From an uncultured Gemmatimonadales bacterium (GTDB lineage: Bacteria; Gemmatimonadota; Gemmatimonadetes; Gemmatimonadales; GWC2-71-9): a stretch of DNA of 64,000 nt. Positions 41,182 to 50,097 of the stretch are shown piece after piece. The stretch spans positions 747,771 to 811,770 of the forward strand of contig CAVUOO010000003.1 in NCBI GenBank assembly GCA_963743195.1, in the 5' to 3' direction. Position numbers and translations under genes: made by a program. The notes below the pieces were generated by a model, which had not been told where the DNA came from, made no database searches, and was given only the letters and a program-made list of their open reading frames with translations. The stretch's first letter is position 1; every line of letters starts with the position of its first letter.

Positions 41182-42235
41182 GTGGACGCTCGGCATCGAG
41201 ACGTCGTGCGACGAGACCTCGGCCGCCCTTCTTCGAACCGAGAATTCCCACGCGACTCTCGGCGGGTTGGTGATCCTGTCCCAGGACATTCACCGCGTGT
41301 TCGGCGGCGTCGTCCCCGAGCTGGCCAGTCGCGCGCACGTAAAGGCAATCGGTTCCGTCGTGGACCGCGCGCTCGCCGACTCCGGTATCGGGCTCAGTCA
41401 GGTCGACCGTATCGCCGTCACCGCGGGACCCGGTCTGGTTGGAGCGCTGCTCGTCGGAGTCATGTACGCGAAGACGCTCGCCTTGAGCCTCGATCGACCG
41501 TTCATCGGGGTGAATCATCTCGAGGGTCACCTCTTCGCCCCTAGCCTGGAAGACAAGGAGCTGAGGCCCCCCTTTGTGGCCCTACTTGTGAGCGGGGGTC
41601 ACACGATGCTGCTCGACGTCCCGGAGTGGGGGGAATATCGATTGCTCGGACAGACGCTCGACGACGCCGCCGGCGAGGCCTTTGACAAGGTCTCCATGCT
41701 CCTCGGCCTCGGCTATCCCGGCGGACCGGCGATCGAACGGATGGCCCGCGATGGCAACCCGGAGCGCTATCGCTTCCCTCGCCCGATGCTTCAGGAGCTC
41801 GAGCGAGACGGGCCCGGGCGGTATGCGTTTTCCTTCAGCGGCCTCAAGACCGCAGTGCTCCGCGCGGTTGGTTCGGCGACGCCCGACGACCTGCCGGTCG
41901 CCGATCTCGCCCGAGGTTTTCAGGACGCCGCGATCGACGTGCTTGCGGCCAAGACCGCACGGGCCAGTGAGGAGCTCGGGTACGGAACCGTCATGATCGG
42001 GGGCGGCGTCGCGTGCAATCGTGCCCTGGTCGCGGCCGTGCGCGAACGGGTGGCGGGAGAGGCACGCGTGAGCGTAGCTTCTCCTCGCCTGAACACCGAC
42101 AATGCGGCAATGATCGCCGCGGCCGGGGCGTGGCGTCTCGCGCGTGGCGAGCACAGCGACTTCGACCTCGAGCCGCGGGACGACCTGCCGCTGCCCGGCC
42201 TCATCATCCCTTCACCAGCTGGCGGACGCGCCTAA
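41174..42235 (+). CDS. tsaD: tRNA N6-adenosine threonylcarbamoyltransferase TsaD
   Basis: LGIETSCDETSAAL, GVNHLEGHLF, GGVACN. Confidence 0.9.
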   Translation: MAEWTLGIETSCDETSAALLRTENSHATLGGLVILSQDIHRVFGGVVPELASRAHVKAIGSVVDRALADSGIGLSQVDRIAVTAGPGLVGALLVGVMYAKTLALSLDRPFIGVNHLEGHLFAPSLEDKELRPPFVALLVSGGHTMLLDVPEWGEYRLLGQTLDDAAGEAFDKVSMLLGLGYPGGPAIERMARDGNPERYRFPRPMLQELERDGPGRYAFSFSGLKTAVLRAVGSATPDDLPVADLARGFQDAAIDVLAAKTARASEELGYGTVMIGGGVACNRALVAAVRERVAGEARVSVASPRLNTDNAAMIAAAGAWRLARGEHSDFDLEPRDDLPLPGLIIPSPAGGRA

Positions 42236-43086
42236 TGCCCATCTACCCTCTCGTCTTTCACCTCGGGCCGCTCGAGATCACCGGTTACGGGATCATGATG
42301 ATGGTAGCGTTCCTGATGGGGGGGTGGCTCATCGCGCTGGAGCTCCGGCGTCGCCAACTGGCCGAGGACTATGCCGCCGATCTGGTCGCGGCGGCCGTGG
42401 TAGGCGGGATCATCGGCGCCAAGTTGTGGTACGTTGCGCTCACCCGAGATCCAGGCGCGCTCTTCTCCCGCGGGGGACTCGTGTGGTACGGGGGGTTCAT
42501 CGGGGGAACGGCCGCCGTCGTTCTCAACGGGTGGCGGCTTCGCGTGCCCCTCCGCTGGACCATGCAGTTGGTCGCGCCGGCTCTCGCGGCCGCCTACGCT
42601 CTAGGGCGAGTGGGATGCTTCCTCGTCAACGATGATTACGGCCGCCCCTCCAACCTGCCCTGGGCGGTCAAGTTCCCACGCGGACTGCCTCCTTCCACCG
42701 CCGGCAACATGGAGCACTTGTTTGGCGTCGCCGTGCCCCCCGGTACCGACCCCACCACGGTGCTTGCCGTTCACCCCACGCAGCTCTACGAAACCGGGAT
42801 CATGCTCGTGGTCTTCGCCGTTCTCTGGCGACTCCGGCTCGGTTCACGGCCCGTGGGATGGTTGTTCGGGCTGTATCTGGTTCTTGCCGGGGCCGAACGG
42901 TTCGTAATCGAGATTCTCCGGGCCAAGGATGATCGGTTTCTTGGCGCCTTTACGCTGGCACAGCTCACATCCGTGATTCTGATTCTGATTGGAAGCGGAC
43001 TCATGGTTTCGTGGAAGAGTGGGACGAGCCCTGCCCCAGGAGATTATCTGACCCGTGGCAAGACCGACCGGGCGGCTAAGAAATAG
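42235..43086 (+). CDS. lgt: prolipoprotein diacylglyceryl transferase
   Basis: GYGIMMMVAFL, GRVGCFLNDD-like GRVGCFLVNDDYG, HPTQLYE. 1-nt overlap with the tsaD stop. Confidence 0.88.
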   Translation: MPIYPLVFHLGPLEITGYGIMMMVAFLMGGWLIALELRRRQLAEDYAADLVAAAVVGGIIGAKLWYVALTRDPGALFSRGGLVWYGGFIGGTAAVVLNGWRLRVPLRWTMQLVAPALAAAYALGRVGCFLVNDDYGRPSNLPWAVKFPRGLPPSTAGNMEHLFGVAVPPGTDPTTVLAVHPTQLYETGIMLVVFAVLWRLRLGSRPVGWLFGLYLVLAGAERFVIEILRAKDDRFLGAFTLAQLTSVILILIGSGLMVSWKSGTSPAPGDYLTRGKTDRAAKK

Positions 43087-43230
43087 ACAGTCTCATAAGT
43101 TGCACAGGCTCCGGGACTTATCACCTCGACTCCGACAACTGTCAAATCTATGAACAGATCCTAGGGTCTACCGAGTCCCGTCCACCACTGTAAACCTATG
43201 CACTGCTTGATGATGCGATGATACCGTGCG

Positions 43231-43246
43231 TGGCATTGCACTTGCA
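43231..43246 (+). promoter_or_regulatory. candidate sigma54 (-24/-12) promoter TGGCAT-N5-TTGCA
   Basis: TGGCAT at 43231-36, spacer TGCAC, TTGCA at 43242-46. This matches the TGGCAC-N5-TTGCW consensus at 10 of 11 specified positions, with canonical GG/GC spacing. It lies in a non-coding spacer. The expected start is near 43257. Confidence 0.5.
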
Positions 43247-43256
43247 CTACACGGGC

Positions 43257-43372
43257 ACGTGGTAGGTCGAAGAAGGGTGGAAGCGAGCACTTCGGCTCGT
43301 TCCGTATACTCAGGGGGCGATCTACCACTTGTTGATACTCGAACGGCCCTCCGGATTCCGGTGGGCCGTTCG
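43257..43372 (+). ncRNA. candidate small RNA (about 115 nt) downstream of the sigma54-like promoter; family unknown
   Basis: An 11-bp stem (43259-69 / 43318-28, one G-U) encloses a 9-bp bulged hairpin (43279-88 / 43295-303, loop ACUUCG). This is followed by the U-rich linker UUGUUGAUACUC and a GC-rich 9+4 bp hairpin at 43341-71. No plausible ORF. The region is lower in GC than the flanks. Confidence 0.4.
43341..43371. terminator. GC-rich hairpin between convergent lgt and rraA (possible bidirectional terminator / 3' end of the candidate sRNA)
   Basis: GAACGGCCC-u-CCGG-auu-CCGG-u-GGGCCGUUC. No clear U-tract on either strand. Confidence 0.5.
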
Positions 43373-43382
43373 TGCGCTGTCG

Positions 43383-43874
43383 TCAGTCGGCTGGCAGCTC
43401 GCCGTCGGCCACCACGATGCCGTCCGCATCGGCATAGAGCCACTCACCGGGTGTGAAGGTCACACCGGCGAACGTCACCGGTACGCCGCGCTCTCCTTCC
43501 CCAGTCCGTCCACTCCTCATCGGCGACGATGCGAGGGCGCGCACGCCGACCGCCGTGGCCCCGATCTCGACTGCATCCCTGATGCAGCCATGCACCAGCA
43601 TTCCGGTCCAGCCATGGTCGCGCGCGAGTGCGGCCAGTCTGCCTCCGACCAGCGCGGTGCGCAACGAGCCACCGCCGTCCACGACGAGCACTCGGCCGTG
43701 TCCCTCACCCTCCAGCACTTGCCGAACGAGCGCATTGTCCTCGAATACTTGAATCGTCTCGATCGGCCCTGAGAAGCTCGAGATGCCGCCCCAGTCGCGA
43801 AACAATGGCGCGACGACTCTCACGCGGCCCGGAAATGCATCGCAGAGATCGGCGGTGGCCCGAGCGATGTTCAC
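43383..43874 (-). CDS. rraA: RraA family protein (RNase E regulator / HMG-CHA aldolase-like)
   Basis: GTG 43874 (VNIARATADLCDAF...). VLVVDGGGSLRTALVGGRLAALARDHGWTGMLVHGCIRD. GTGA overlap with the upstream permease stop. Confidence 0.8.
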   Translation of the reverse strand: MNIARATADLCDAFPGRVRVVAPLFRDWGGISSFSGPIETIQVFEDNALVRQVLEGEGHGRVLVVDGGGSLRTALVGGRLAALARDHGWTGMLVHGCIRDAVEIGATAVGVRALASSPMRSGRTGEGERGVPVTFAGVTFTPGEWLYADADGIVVADGELPAD

Positions 43875-45872
43875 CGGTGCGGAGTGGGAACGGGAAGATC
43901 GGCCTGAGCGGAAGGAGTGCGCGCGGACGTGTCGGGTTGGGCAGCCACCCGACGGCGGGGCGCCATGACGAAGGTCCAGGCTACGGCGGCAAGCGCCAGC
44001 ACCACGAGAAGGGCCTGCGCGGCCAGGGACTCGACCGTCGGGATAAATGCCGATCGCCGGAATTCGCGGCGCCCATGGGGCGACCGTCGTCCCGATGGTC
44101 CCGCCTTCCTGCAGCTCGGCGATGCCCTTCCCCGCAAAGACGAACGCCATGTAGTAGAGAAACGCGCTCGTCACGCCGAAGAACGGCTTGAGCGGAAGCC
44201 GCACGCCAAACCGGTTGATCGCGACGTACACCACGACCAGTACGAGCCCGCCGGCGATGATGCCGACCGCAACCGGCATGGCACCGGCTGCCGTCGCCGG
44301 CAACGAAGAGCGCCTTGTAGAACAGCACCGTCTCGAAGCCCTCACGATAGACGGCGAGAAAGGCGACGGACGCCAGCGCGAGCGCGGAGCCGCCGCTGAG
44401 AGCGTCCTGCACCTTGCTCTTCACGAAGCGGTTCCACTTGGCCACTTCCATCTTCGAGAGCAGCCAGTAGCTCACGTAGAACAGCACGCCCGTGGCGACC
44501 AGCATCGTCGCGCCCTCGAGCACCTTCCCGCCGAACCGGGCTCAGCACGAAGATCGTCTCGAGCGCGAACGCCGTCAGGATGCTGGCGGCAACCGCCGCT
44601 CCGACGCCGACGATGGATGTCGCGCTTGCGGTGAGCCGCACCGATCTTCGACAGAAACGTCATCAGGGCCCCGACGATCAGGATCGCCTCGAGCCCTTCG
44701 CGCAGCAGAATCACGAATGATTGGACGAAGAGATTCACCGGTGACAGATCGTCGCCGAGCACTCGCTCCGCTTTCTCGAGCGACACGGCCAGCTGGCTCT
44801 CGATCGGTTTGAGCTCCGCCGGCGTCGCGGACCCTGAGCCCGCGCTCATCCGCAGCGCGGCGAAAGCGGCCTCGACTTCGGCCGCGACGTCGGGATTCTT
44901 TGCCCGAACAGTGGACTCGACCTGCTCGAAGGTCATGTAGGCGTCGAGGGCACGCGTCCCCGCCGAGGGATCCCCCGTGCGCGCCATGGCGAAGGCCGAC
45001 TCGGCCTGGGCACGAATCAGATCGAACAGTCCGGCGGTCACCGGCCTGCCGCTGTCGCTCGCGAACGCACGCACCGCCGCGACCCTTGCCAGAGAGCCGG
45101 GATCGGAGCGTCCGCGCAACCCGAGCGCGGCGAGAATCGAATCGTCGCTCAGCTTGCCGGTCGTCGGAAACGCGCGGAGGGATGCGGGCACGTCGCCCGC
45201 GGGACGGGGCAGCCGGAACGTGGACGCGTAGAGGGCGACGGCCCACCGGTCCGCCGGCGGCAGTTGCTCCTCGAACGCCGGCATCGCCGTCGCCACCGTG
45301 CCGATGCCGATTCGGCGGAAATAATCGAGCGGTGTTTGATCTTTGAGGGCTGCCCAATCGGCGAGGCTCGCTGGAGGTGGATCGAGATTCGCCGCCAGAG
45401 ACCCGTCTCCATGACCGGCGTCCCCGTGGCACCCGGAGCATTTCGCGCGAAAGATGTCGGCTCCGCGCGCGAGCGAAGGCGTCACGACTGGCGGCTCGTC
45501 GAGCGTCACACCCGTGGTCGAAGACAGCTCGCTCGTGAAGACGCGAACGCGGGAATCCAGCGTGTCAGGCGACGCGGTATCGGCAACGAGGGAGATGAGG
45601 GAATCGATCCGTGCGGCGGCGAGCGGGGCCGTCTTCGAACCAAGGCCCCCGGCAGCCCGTCTGGCCTCCTTCAGGAAGAGGGCGGCCTCCGCCACCTCCT
45701 GTGGTGCCACGACCCGACCATTCGAGAGGCCGAGGCGGTATTCCTGTGCCGCGAGTTGCGCGGTGGACGCCACTCTCCTGACAGTGGCGGCCAAGTTACC
45801 CGACGTATCGCTGGGCGAGACGCTTAAGAGCGAGGCGACTAGGGGGATCGCGCCGATGAGAAGCATTTTCAA
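43871..45872 (-). pseudogene. cytochrome c-FTR1 fusion iron permease, four consecutive insertion-like frame changes in the permease half as assembled (~44612, ~44536-44540, ~44290-44300, GGG 44040-44042)
   Basis: The N-terminal exported domain with heme site CSGCHG and the first FTR1 helix (REGLEAILIV) are in ORF 44472..45872. IVGVGAAVAASILTAFALETIF is in the 44342..44641 frame. KVLEGATMLVATGVLFYVSYWLLSKM...YREGFETVLFY is in the 43981..44523 frame. AMPVAVGIIAGG...FAGKGIAELQEGG is in the 43383..44345 frame. TVESLAAQALLVVLALAAVAW...* is in the 43871..44137 frame. Confidence 0.8.
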
Positions 45873-45937
45873 CCGATTCTTGATGGCATTCGGGAAACTA
45901 GAGTCCGGCAGTCGGATTTGGAAGAGGGCGGTGCGAT

Positions 45938-46336
45938 TCAGGCAGGATGGATGACGGCGACTGCTCCGGCAGTGTTCTCGGAATGTGTCAGCGAAATCTC
46001 GATTCGAAGTCCACCGGCCTCAGCCGCCAGGCGTGCCGCCAGTCCATGGAGGACGATCGCGGGTCGACCATCGCCATCCCGCGTGACCTCGATCTCTCGC
46101 CAGCCGACGCCACGCGCGCCTGGAAGCGACTGAAGCGCCTTATAGACCGCCTCCTTGGCGGCGATCCGGGCGCCGGCATGACCGGTGGGGTCCGGTCGAG
46201 TGCCGAGGTAGTCGCGCTCCGCCTCGGTAAAGAACCGCGTCAGTGCCTGGTTACCCTTGGAGACGAGCAGACGTGAGACGCGAGAAAGGTCCACCAGGTC
46301 GATTCCGACACCGATGACGGTCAGAAGCGACTCCAC
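45938..46336 (-). CDS. acpS: holo-[acyl-carrier-protein] synthase
   Basis: IGVGIDLVDLSRV, FTEAERDY, AAKEAVYKAL, ISLTHSE. The GTG 46336 start is a guess and overlaps the upstream stop. Confidence 0.8.
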   Translation of the reverse strand: MESLLTVIGVGIDLVDLSRVSRLLVSKGNQALTRFFTEAERDYLGTRPDPTGHAGARIAAKEAVYKALQSLPGARGVGWREIEVTRDGDGRPAIVLHGLAARLAAEAGGLRIEISLTHSENTAGAVAVIHPA

Positions 46337-47763: not shown

Positions 47764-48556
47764 TGCTTCTGCTCCAACCGTCGCACCGCTACGAGCCGCT
47801 CGCGCAGCGGAGCCGCCCGTCGTCCCGGCCAGCCAGGACTCGGCGACGACGCCACCGCAGGCCACGGTCGAGTGCACGAGGGCATCGCCCATCGTCGGCG
47901 AAGGCGACGTGAGTGATCTTCGGCGTCGTCTCACCGCGGAAGAAGAGAAGATCGCCGGGTTGCGGGGGCCCGCCCGAGACTTCTACGCCGCACCCAATCT
48001 GTTGCGAGGAGTCGCGCGGCAGCCTGATGCCGCGTGCCGCGAAGGTCGTCTGCACCAGCCCCGAGCAGTCCACGCCCCATGGCGTCACGCCTCCCCATTC
48101 GTACGACGCACCCGAGAAATGCTGCGAGTGCCCACCGCTCGGGCGCCGTGCCGCGCGCCGAAGCGCGCGCCTCGCTCTCGGTCGGTACCGAACCTTCGAC
48201 GAGTTGCCCGCGCCCTCCGCCCGGCAGCCGAACGGTCGCTCCTTCGATGGCGACACGCGCGCGAAGCGGAATCCGCATGGGGTTCTCACCCATCCGGACG
48301 ACTGCGCCAAGGCTCCATCCGGTGGCCTCGGACCGCCACCGGTCGGCGGAACCCTCATCGACCTCCAGCAGGTAGCCGGCGTGTGCCCACCCCTCGTATC
48401 CGTCGAGACGAACAGCACAGACGCCGCCACTCCGCGTTGCTCTCGAGCACGCTCGCTGTCTCGCCCGAGGACGAGCTGGCTCACTTGCTCGGCGCGGAGG
48501 CTCGGCTCGGCGAACAGCGGAACGATCGGGGATCGGGCGATGGCGGCAGAGAACAT
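47760..48556 (-). pseudogene. NlpC/P60 (C40) cell-wall peptidase with SH3-like N-terminal domains, five insertion-like frame changes as assembled (~48465, ~48423, ~48110, ~47888, ~47825)
   Basis: [31 protein letters not shown] / ETASVLESNAEWR / VCAVRLDGYEGWAHAGYLLEV...AAFLG / ASYEWGGVTPWGVDCSGLVQ...GDLLFF...ITHVAFADDG / DALVHSTVACGGVVAES / PLRERLVAVRRLEQKQ*. Each segment is in the next frame. Catalytic Cys (DCSG) and His (THVA) are present. Confidence 0.75.
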
Positions 48557-48738
48557 CAGGTACCGGATGGAGACCTGGCGGCCTTTGCGGCACAGTCCCG
48601 GCAGAGCGTGACGCCGCGGAAGGTGCAGATCAGGCAGATGAAGGTCCCGCAGTTCGTGCAGGGATAGCCCTCGGAGGCGCGCTCCTCGCGCCCGCAGGCG
48701 CGGCAGGCCATGGCATCGTGCTCGCGGTTTTCCGTCAT
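48556..48738 (-). CDS. cysteine-rich zinc-ribbon/B-box-like miniprotein (60 aa, four CxxC pairs)
   Basis: [64 protein letters not shown] overlap with the upstream activator stop and TGATG overlap with the downstream peptidase start. Confidence 0.55.
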
Positions 48739-50097
48739 GGACGCCTCAGGCCGAGATGTTGTACGCGCTTGATCTTGTTGATCAGCGTCGCGCGCGAGAT
48801 GCCGAGCTCGATCGCGGCGCGGGTGCGATTGCCGGTGTGGTGCTTGAGCGTCCGCTCGATGTGCTGGCGCTCCAGGTCTTCGAGGCTGAGCGGCGTGTGC
48901 CGCCGGTCGCCGATGCCGGGCCGCGCGCGGAATTCGCCCGGCAGGTGCTCCACGCTCACCGCCACGGCGCCGCGGCCGAGGATCAGCGCGCGCTCGAGGA
49001 CGTTGCGCATCTCGCGCACGTTGCCGGGCCAGGCATAGCGCCAGCAGCCGCTCGAGCACTTCGCTCGAGAGCGTCGCCGGCCCGTCCGGCAGCTCGGCGC
49101 GAAGATCGGACATGAGCCGAGTGATGAGCGCGAGGCGGTCCTCCCGCGAGCGGTCCCGCACCGCCGGGAGCATGAGCGGCATCACGCTGAGCCGGTAGTA
49201 CAGGTCTTCGCGGAAGCGTCCGTTCTCGACCTCGGCCTGCAGCTCCTTGTTCGTCGCCGCGACCAGCCGCACGTCCACCGTGATTTCTCGGGTGCCGCCC
49301 AGCCGGCGGAAGGTCTTGGTCTCGAGCACCTTGAGGAGCTTGGGCTGCAGCTCGGGCGCGAGGTCGCCGATCTCGTCGAGGAAGATCGTGCCGTGGTCGG
49401 CGATCTCGAAGAGACCCTGCTTCCGGTCCTTCGCGTCGGTGAACGCACCCTTCTCGTGACCGAACAGCTCGGAGTCGAGAAAGGTGGCGTTGAGCCCGGC
49501 GCAGTTGACCTCGACGAAGGGCGCCTTGGACCGCGGGACTCAGGTCATGGATCATCCGCGCGACCCAGCCCTTTGCCCGTTCCGCTCTCTCCCGTGAGCA
49601 GCACGGTGGTCCGCTCGCTCTGCGCCAGCAGCGCGACCTGGTGGGCGAAGTCCTGCATGCCGGAGGAGGTGCCGAGCGAATCGAGGCCGTGATCGGGTGC
49701 GCTCTGAACCAGGAGGGCTTCGTTCACGCGGCGGAGCCGCGCCTTGTCGGCGACCCGGGCGGTGGCGGCGGCGAGGTGCTCCATGTCCACCGGCTTGGTG
49801 AGGAAGTTCTCGGCGCCGAGCTGCATGGCGCGCACCGCGGTGGAGACGTCCGCTTCGCCCGTGAGCAGGATGACGCGCGGCGTCGCGCTGCCGGAGGTGC
49901 TCCAGCACCTCCAGGCCGTCCATCCCGGGCAGGCGGAGGTCGAGCATCACCACCTCCGGCCGGAGTCGGTCGAAGGTGGCCAGGCCGGCCTCGCCGCTCA
50001 GCTCGCGCGTGACCTCGTAGCCCAGCCGCTCGAAATAGTTCCCGATGCTGCGCAGAACGTCGACATCGTCGTCGATCAGCAGAACCGAAGCAGGCAT
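48735..50097 (-). pseudogene. NtrC-family sigma54-dependent response regulator (REC-AAA+-Fis HTH), four insertion-like frame changes as assembled (~49881, CCC 49569-71, GGG 49535-37, ~49037-44)
   Basis: REC: VLLIDDD...MLDLRLPGMDG...LTKP. AAA+: LLTGESGTGKG (Walker A), GAFTDA (GAFTGA-type sigma54 contact loop), [21 protein letters not shown]: [21 protein letters not shown]. The segments lie in five successive frames of the ORF track. Corrected length is 453 codons. Confidence 0.85.

Follow-up and report, generated by a model that had tools for sequence, protein, structure and literature searches.

The question raised by this locus is what a gap of 296 nucleotides (nt) between two convergent genes might be for. 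It lies in a 64-kb stretch of contig CAVUOO010000003.1 from an uncultured Gemmatimonadales bacterium (the window, i.e., all 64,000 nt that were analysed), between lgt on the + strand at 42235-43086 (Pfam LGT, 8.9e-53) and an RraA-like gene, rraA, on the - strand at 43383-43871 (RraA-like, 2.2e-42). An initial annotation, made from the letters of the DNA, had described the gap as a low-GC convergent spacer and proposed that it held a stand-alone, sigma-54-dependent small RNA (sRNA). The description was borne out, with a GC content of 51-56% over 43025-43324 vs 65-72% in the flanks, the features named within the spacer all lay where they had been placed, and comparative data from relatives strongly supported the proposal itself, with each of the computational checks that the annotation had suggested turning out in its favour. 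With a probability of roughly 85%, we consider the spacer to be a stand-alone gene whose product is a small structured RNA of a new family and which would be transcribed from a sigma-54 promoter. Genes for sRNAs that depend on sigma-54 and an enhancer-binding protein are a known kind; it is the family that is new. The promoter and the parts of the predicted RNA are as follows.

43231..43246, + strand: candidate sigma-54 promoter, -24 element TGGCAT and -12 element TTGCA, fully or almost fully conserved in 69/69 genome copies (T-GGCA-Y, TTGC)
43257, + strand: predicted transcription start from the usual sigma-54 geometry, 12 nt past the C of the -12 GC, because that C is taken as -12
43259..43328, + strand: conserved RNA body, recognised by identity, covariation and a covariance model
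43259-69/43318-28, + strand: P1, an 11-base-pair (bp) stem seen in the fold, with double changes in 2/11 pairs
43270-74/43312-17, + strand: internal loop, AAGAA opposite AGGGGG, invariant
43275-78/43308-11, + strand: P2, a 4-bp helix (GGGU/ACUC) given by the fold and by RNAalifold, invariant in sequence
43279-82/43300-03, + strand: P3, which together with P4 has double changes in 5/9 pairs
43284-88/43295-99, + strand: P4, part of the P3/P4 inner hairpin
43289-94, + strand: apical loop ACUUCG, seen in the fold
43329..43339, + strand: single-stranded linker, variable in the family, mostly C/U-rich (CCUCUnUA) elsewhere and not in the window
43340..43372, + strand: predicted terminator hairpin, compensatory changes in 10/14 pairs, U-tract weak in the window

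The starting point was the near-consensus promoter box of the initial annotation, TGGCAT-tgcac-TTGCA, which indeed matches TGGCAC-N5-TTGCW at 10 of 11 positions and keeps a spacing of 12 nt between its GG (43232-33) and GC (43244-45). Within the window alone such a match is at chance level (one at no more than one mismatch, where 1.04 were expected), so that the significance of the promoter comes from its conservation, and since both strands of the spacer also fold well, it was comparison with relatives that had to decide. Relatives were sampled as one genome per species and scanned with the Lgt protein, which produced 80 loci, nearly all from entries titled as Gemmatimonadales or Gemmatimonadota metagenome-assembled genomes, with Lgt identities of 70-87%. 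Exact TGGCAY-N5-TTGC occurred once per locus in 64 of these 80 loci, always directly 5' of the RNA, and there was no further exact copy on either strand of the 1.12 Mb (the window and 200 loci) that were also used for the search for targets. The motif was present in 170/170 copies with sufficient upstream sequence, 155 of them perfect and the others one or two positions off, and its columns T-GGCA and CTTGC were conserved at 90% or more, with neighbouring columns at 30-50%. Related spacers, in which the initial annotation had proposed to look for conservation of the box, had an invariant box within surroundings that could not be aligned; by blastn the first 144 nt of the spacer were unalignable. 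The comparative evidence that this is a functional sigma-54 promoter is very strong, and no sigma-70 promoter was found within 42800-43700. One metagenome subgroup (L093, L112, L128, L129, L131, L173 and L192) has the promoter TGGCAC-N5-GGTGC, i.e., a -12 element of GGTGC and not CTTGC, in which the GC is kept and the preceding TT altered.

What lies 3' of the promoter is conserved among soil Gemmatimonadales to a degree that its neighbours are not. Of the 80 genome loci, 68 contain the body, in each case ~200 nt past the lgt stop codon and on the lgt strand. Its median nucleotide identity to the window was 91.5% (range 80-97%), where the coding sequences of lgt and tsaD reached 74% and that of rraA 68.5%. 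Metagenomes were searched with a pattern of the two invariant blocks of the body, TCGAAGAAGGGT-N26-42-CTCAGGGGGCG, and a covariance model (R1) was built from the genome copies. At least 120 stretches matched the pattern, one of which (L146) was rejected as a chance match, and at least 119 further copies were obtained, all just 3' of lgt and on the same strand. The covariance model found the window copy with 109 bits (E = 8e-25), no second one in the 64 kb and a single copy per locus, its opposite-strand matches being only the palindromic terminator, and it revealed no paralogues in the window or the loci.

Folding of 43257-43378 (-61.4 kcal/mol, z = -4.7) reproduced the arrangement originally described, an 11-bp stem enclosing a bulged hairpin with an ACUUCG loop and followed by a linker and a GC-rich hairpin. 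When 66 genome copies were aligned with MAFFT and analysed with RNAalifold, every helix of the initial annotation was recovered, along with one that it had missed, the P2 helix. Across this alignment, standard pairs made up 98.7% of the base-pair cells vs 32-48% in controls in which the partners were slid by 1-3 columns, double-sided changes occurred at 17 pairs (159 cells), none of 500 shuffles reached any of the observed measures, and RNAalifold counted 20 pairs with compensatory change. The compensatory changes that the initial annotation had proposed to look for in the stems are therefore present in both body and terminator, and are found mostly in the inner hairpin and the terminator. The unpaired nucleotides of the body, i.e., AAGAA/AGGGGG, GUAWA and the apical CACUUCGG, were invariant over ~190 copies. 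A pseudoknot between the ACUUCG loop and CGAAG (43268-72) was considered and is unsupported, because CGAAG is constant and the loop is not (it can be ACAUCG or ACUUAG, among others).

The same alignment bears on the strand. Two G-U pairs, whose counterparts on the opposite strand would be C-A mismatches, are kept in 57/66 and 65/66 copies, and a T-tract (three or more T within the next 8 nt, counted on the alignment) follows the terminal stem in 55/66 homologues on the + strand vs 5/66 for its equivalent on the - strand. These conserved G-U pairs and the T-tract place the RNA on the + strand and assign the hairpin to it as its own terminator, not that of rraA. The terminal GC-rich hairpin of the initial annotation was confirmed at 43340-72, but no real U-tract stands behind the window copy (TGCGCTGT), while most homologues have one. 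Transcription would then run from ~43257 to ~43372-80, both ends being predictions, and yield an RNA of ~115 nt.

The novelty of the family was examined with the 4227 models of Rfam 15, Qrr, GlmY and GlmZ among them, at gathering and at permissive E-values. The whole window gave 0 gathering matches and only chance matches at E<=10 (mir-341, M23), and six full-length homologous loci gave 0 matches at E<=1, in keeping with the earlier statement that no known RNA family could be recognised; ARAGORN found no tRNA or tmRNA. The literature searched held nothing on this locus and no characterised regulatory RNA in Gemmatimonadota. As far as sampled, the family appears to be confined to Gemmatimonadales, and the window does not hold its most typical member. 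The leader between the -12 element and the body measures 31-63 nt in most members (mode 40), and in 145 of 150 distinct long leaders it contains a covarying 5' hairpin (GAAGYC...GRCUUC) followed by GAAAAG; about 95% of all members have this hairpin. It is due to this additional hairpin and GAAAAG linker, lost in the window lineage, that the RNA of most relatives would be ~150 nt long. In the window only 13 nt separate the -12 element and the body, so that the RNA would begin directly at P1. Seven other copies are as short, and because one of them, L178, comes from an independent contig with an Lgt of 98% identity, the 5' deletion is considered real and not an assembly artefact. The window copy is thus best described, from these comparisons, as an atypical, 5'-shortened member of a family of longer, ~150-nt RNAs.

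A number of observations weigh against this account of the locus, in addition to the chance level of the promoter match in the window. The window copy looks eroded: its leader is short and has no 5' hairpin, the proximal of two upstream palindromes (site B, below) is degenerate, there is one mismatch in the candidate enhancer, the U-tract is weak, and its 109 bits are among the lowest scores, typical copies reaching 125-143. P2 and most of P1 never vary and have little or no covariation support, P2 being uninformative in this respect because it is invariant. Three of the closest relatives by Lgt (L001, L002 and L004) lack the whole locus cleanly, with an lgt-rraA gap of 16-50 bp, and a fourth locus (L060, 3839-3936) holds a decayed remnant, UCAGGGGGCGAC plus the terminator, without the inner hairpin or the promoter; judged by these genomes, the RNA locus is dispensable in some close relatives. 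The gene for the nearest potential activator is kept in genomes without the RNA. Finally, a search for targets by 9-10-mer complementarity in the 1.12 Mb, which contain very few genes, returned only matches within conserved coding sequence or on the wrong strand. The lgt-rraA junctions that lack the RNA locus also include L201 16720-16737.

How might an RNA of this kind act? The answer that we tentatively favour, although we would put it at slightly under even odds, is that it is a trans-acting riboregulator recognised by a protein, for which it would serve as a decoy or a scaffold, through the invariant purine-rich loops of its rod-like body. Recognition of the folded rod is favoured because the unpaired nucleotides of the body are invariant, while the free linkers are variable or absent; a ligand in place of a protein is rated less likely. 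That some molecular interaction constrains the RNA is also argued by the body having changed far less than the neighbouring housekeeping genes.

The strongest competitor retains the gene and the promoter but makes the product an Hfq-type base-pairing sRNA, in which the C/U-rich linker or the G-rich loop strand would be a single-stranded seed that pairs with ribosome-binding sites of mRNAs and represses or activates their translation. The order of body, single-stranded pyrimidine linker and U-tailed terminator is the typical layout of an Hfq module, CCUCUnUA resembles the 16S anti-Shine-Dalgarno sequence (the linker is 67% pyrimidine, and CUCU, CUCC or CCUC occurs in 68% of 187 copies), AAGAAG and GAAAAG are ARN-type purine repeats, and the best-known sigma-54 sRNAs, Qrr, act in this manner (PMC13501541). 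However, no part of the RNA is less conserved than the linker, which lacks its C/U-rich character in the window and in about one-third of the members, the invariant nucleotides sit in the internal loops of a long helix and not in free single strands, and the complementarity search described above gave only coding-sequence coincidences. Base pairing is therefore a possibility to be kept in mind rather than one that we would back. A more specific proposal, and in our estimation an unlikely one, is that the RNA does not act by base pairing but represents a new structured class whose internal loop (AAGAA/AGGGGG, GUAWA, CACUUCGG) binds a protein or a small ligand as part of a sigma-54 circuit for envelope biogenesis specific to Gemmatimonadota. 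The tie to the envelope comes from the envelope-related neighbours of the locus, i.e., lgt, TamA/TamB and NlpC/P60.

Favouring a protein-recognised product of a stand-alone gene presupposes the gene, and three other explanations of the spacer would do away with it. The first, which we regard as improbable, is that transcripts from the sigma-54 promoter extend in antisense into the convergent gene, in this case rraA, with the body and hairpin as the leader or attenuator of a cis-antisense RNA. A convergent gene does always face the RNA gene, and read-through is conceivable in the window because the terminator there has no U-tract. The identity of that gene differs by locus, though (mostly rraA, otherwise an open reading frame (ORF) of 160 amino acids (aa) or a gene for an FTR1/cytochrome c permease), the terminator of most copies is canonical and has its T-tract, and inspection of the sequences disclosed no anti-terminator or other alternative pairing between body and terminator. 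As the initial annotation had maintained for the window, there is no same-strand gene 3' of the RNA, the next gene being on the opposite strand at every locus examined; with neither such a gene nor an anti-terminator pairing to be seen, a cis-acting leader or riboswitch was rejected.

Less probable still is that the spacer is merely a 3' untranslated region or shared terminator of lgt and/or rraA, with a promoter motif that arose by chance or is non-productive. The terminal hairpin does end only 11 nt from the rraA stop codon, the motif is not significant in the window by itself, and both strands fold well. Yet the motif recurs in all 170 homologues with enough upstream sequence and is unique to its position, the body exceeds both flanking genes by far in conservation, only the + strand has the T-tract, the element persists where other genes replace rraA, and the relatives with the 16-50-bp gap do without it. 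As for a small protein encoded by the conserved block, which might be suggested by a GTG-initiated frame that crosses the body and by mechanical ORFs of 55-91 aa, it can be dismissed, because indels of 1-2 nt within the body (in the window, L011, L050, L067, L070, L073 and L009) break any frame, the substitutions compensate in pairs across helices, and neither a start codon nor a ribosome-binding site is conserved. The earlier statement that the spacer has no credible ORF stands in that coding is ruled out by the indels of the homologues, but not in the strictest sense, since mechanical ORFs do cross it.

The stand-alone RNA gene, which we continue to prefer, also has conserved DNA 5' of its promoter. 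Three to four islands stand at fixed distances upstream of the GG of the -24 element, in sequence that is otherwise unalignable; positions were measured from this GG across 150 distinct upstream regions. In the window they correspond to the following, none of which is assigned to a strand.

43074..43088: degenerate distal copy of GTC-N9-GAC (GGC-N9-GAC in the window), overlapping the lgt stop codon
43096..43120: distal 25-bp palindrome TAAG-N17-CTTA (site A), TAA-N19-TTA peak at -136 to -139 from GG
43141..43155: candidate enhancer, GTC-N9-AAC here and GTC-N9-GAC in the family, at -92 to -95 from GG in most loci
43191..43215: position of the proximal 25-bp palindrome (site B), degenerate in the window, TAA-N19-TTA peak at -40 to -42 from GG

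The copies of GTC-N9-GAC look like activator-binding sites, although what binds them we can only infer. The centre of the candidate enhancer is ~109 nt 5' of the predicted start, and a second GTC-N9-GAC occurs ~160 nt 5' of GG in about one-third of the 150 upstream regions. Sites A and B bracket the candidate enhancer at ~96 bp from each other, i.e., about nine helical turns, and have equivalents in ~150 loci; in the window, site B (GTAAACC...GATGATGCG) has kept its left TAA and lost its right arm. We know of no transcription-factor site that matches TAAG-N17-CTTA. In their arms, the 25-bp palindromes agree with the IHF core (CAAnnnnTTR / YAAnnnnTTG) and resemble inverted IHF cores, the consensus of an IHF site being WATCARXXXXTTR (PMC3045617), and site A is accordingly viewed as a candidate architectural (IHF-like) site or a site for a regulator. 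In the sequence of events that these elements suggest, RNA polymerase with sigma-54 would occupy TGGCAT-N5-TTGCA and remain closed until remodelled by an activator of the NtrC type that sits on the GTC-N9-GAC palindrome(s) ~110 (and ~175) nt upstream, with the TAAG-N17-CTTA palindromes probably bending or otherwise organising the DNA; both the dependence on an activator and its identity are conjectural.

The initial annotation had noted an NtrC-type activator with a GAFTDA loop ~5 kb away, and its domain composition agrees: it is an NtrC-family response regulator (REC, sigma-54 AAA+, HTH_8) encoded at 48765-50097 on the - strand, 5.4-6.8 kb from the RNA gene, with the GAFTDA loop at ~49449. 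The 3' end of a second activator that had been reported at 1-67 of the window (+ strand) likewise encodes an HTH_8-type C-terminus, ending in RANLYRRMRRLGLDKRDE before the stop; rpoN was not seen within the 64-kb window. Orthologues of the nearer regulator stand at the same distance in 10 of the 12 loci that are long enough, with protein identities of 91-95%. It may be the activator of the RNA, but this is a guess and stays one, because the gene is retained where the RNA is absent and the protein falls below every NCBIfam equivalog cut-off. The orthologues include L091 5408-6754 and, in both L201 and L202, 10001-11347. The regulator is also unusually conserved, its 91-95% comparing with ~75% for Lgt and TsaD, and no histidine kinase gene is adjacent to it.

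The regulator gene is part of a co-directional cluster, TamA(Omp85)-TamB-YegS-activator-Zn-ribbon-NlpC/P60-HAD-ACPS-FTR1/cyt c-RraA. Directly after it, at 48556-48738 (- strand), is a 60-aa ORF with four CxxC-type pairs that is Zn-ribbon-like, and L201 and L202 each have a called gene of 60-61 aa in the equivalent position. Three genes of the cluster, all on the - strand, are split over 2-5 frames relative to the intact orthologues in L091, namely those for the FTR1/cytochrome c permease (43943-45959), NlpC/P60 (47766-48547) and the activator (48765-50097), which reflects either a local pseudogene cluster or local assembly indels. TamB (4.2 kb), YegS, HAD, ACPS, RraA, Lgt and TsaD are intact.

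Where does this leave the RNA with respect to known systems? The sigma-54-dependent sRNAs found in the literature searched, Qrr and GlmY/GlmZ, are those of Proteobacteria. GlmY and GlmZ of the Enterobacteriaceae have a sigma-54 promoter, GlrR sites (three, of the form TGTCN10GACA) and flanking IHF sites (PMC3045617), and PMC7073468 presents GlmY as a protein decoy for RapZ within the control of the cell envelope. The parallels to GlmY/GlmZ (RF00128, RF00083) are considerable, i.e., a stand-alone sigma-54 sRNA gene, palindromes upstream and IHF-like flanking sites, and possibly the envelope context too, given that the present RNA lies among lgt, TamA/TamB and NlpC/P60. The differences are that the palindromes here are GTC-N9-GAC in one or two copies and not three copies with N10 spacing, that the predicted RNA consists of one rod, inside which three helices are stacked, and a terminator and does not have the three-stem layout of GlmY/GlmZ, and that the phylum is another, with no match in sequence or structure (cmscan). 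In the Vibrionaceae, sigma-54 and the phosphorylated NtrC-family response regulator LuxO activate the Qrr sRNAs, which are short and have their own terminators (PMC13501541). The RNA described here is like Qrr (RF00378) in its size, its sigma-54 promoter and its own terminator, with the activator conjectural in our case. Qrr sRNAs exist as multiple paralogues, contain a seed that is conserved and single-stranded, and use Hfq to pair with mRNAs, whereas this RNA has one copy per locus, invariant nucleotides in internal loops and no Rfam match.

The purine repeats of the RNA (GAAG, GAAAAG and AAGAAG) recall the A-rich motifs of two further sRNAs, CrcZ and CrcY of Pseudomonas. Their sigma-54 promoters are activated by CbrB, and they contain repeated A-rich motifs. 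CrcZ, however, is ~400 nt long and has six A-rich motifs, while the present RNA would have 115-150 nt, with its purine tracts mostly within structure, and again there is no Rfam match to CrcZ/CrcY. In PMC5113210, CrcZ and CrcY are described as antagonists of Hfq and Crc.

For the phylum, the meaning of the locus lies first in what it brings together. The Gemmatimonadota are among the commonest bacteria of soils, and a conserved RNA with a textbook promoter and a compact candidate enhancer would be an entry point to both sigma-54 signalling and RNA regulation in them. Natural deletions of the locus and the naturally 5'-truncated variant of the window are built-in comparisons, and the covariance model could be used to annotate the RNA in hundreds of metagenome-assembled genomes. 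Should the RNA prove, against our expectation, to be a new structured class serving envelope biogenesis, it would be an independently evolved functional analogue of GlmY-RapZ in a phylum without a characterised riboregulator.

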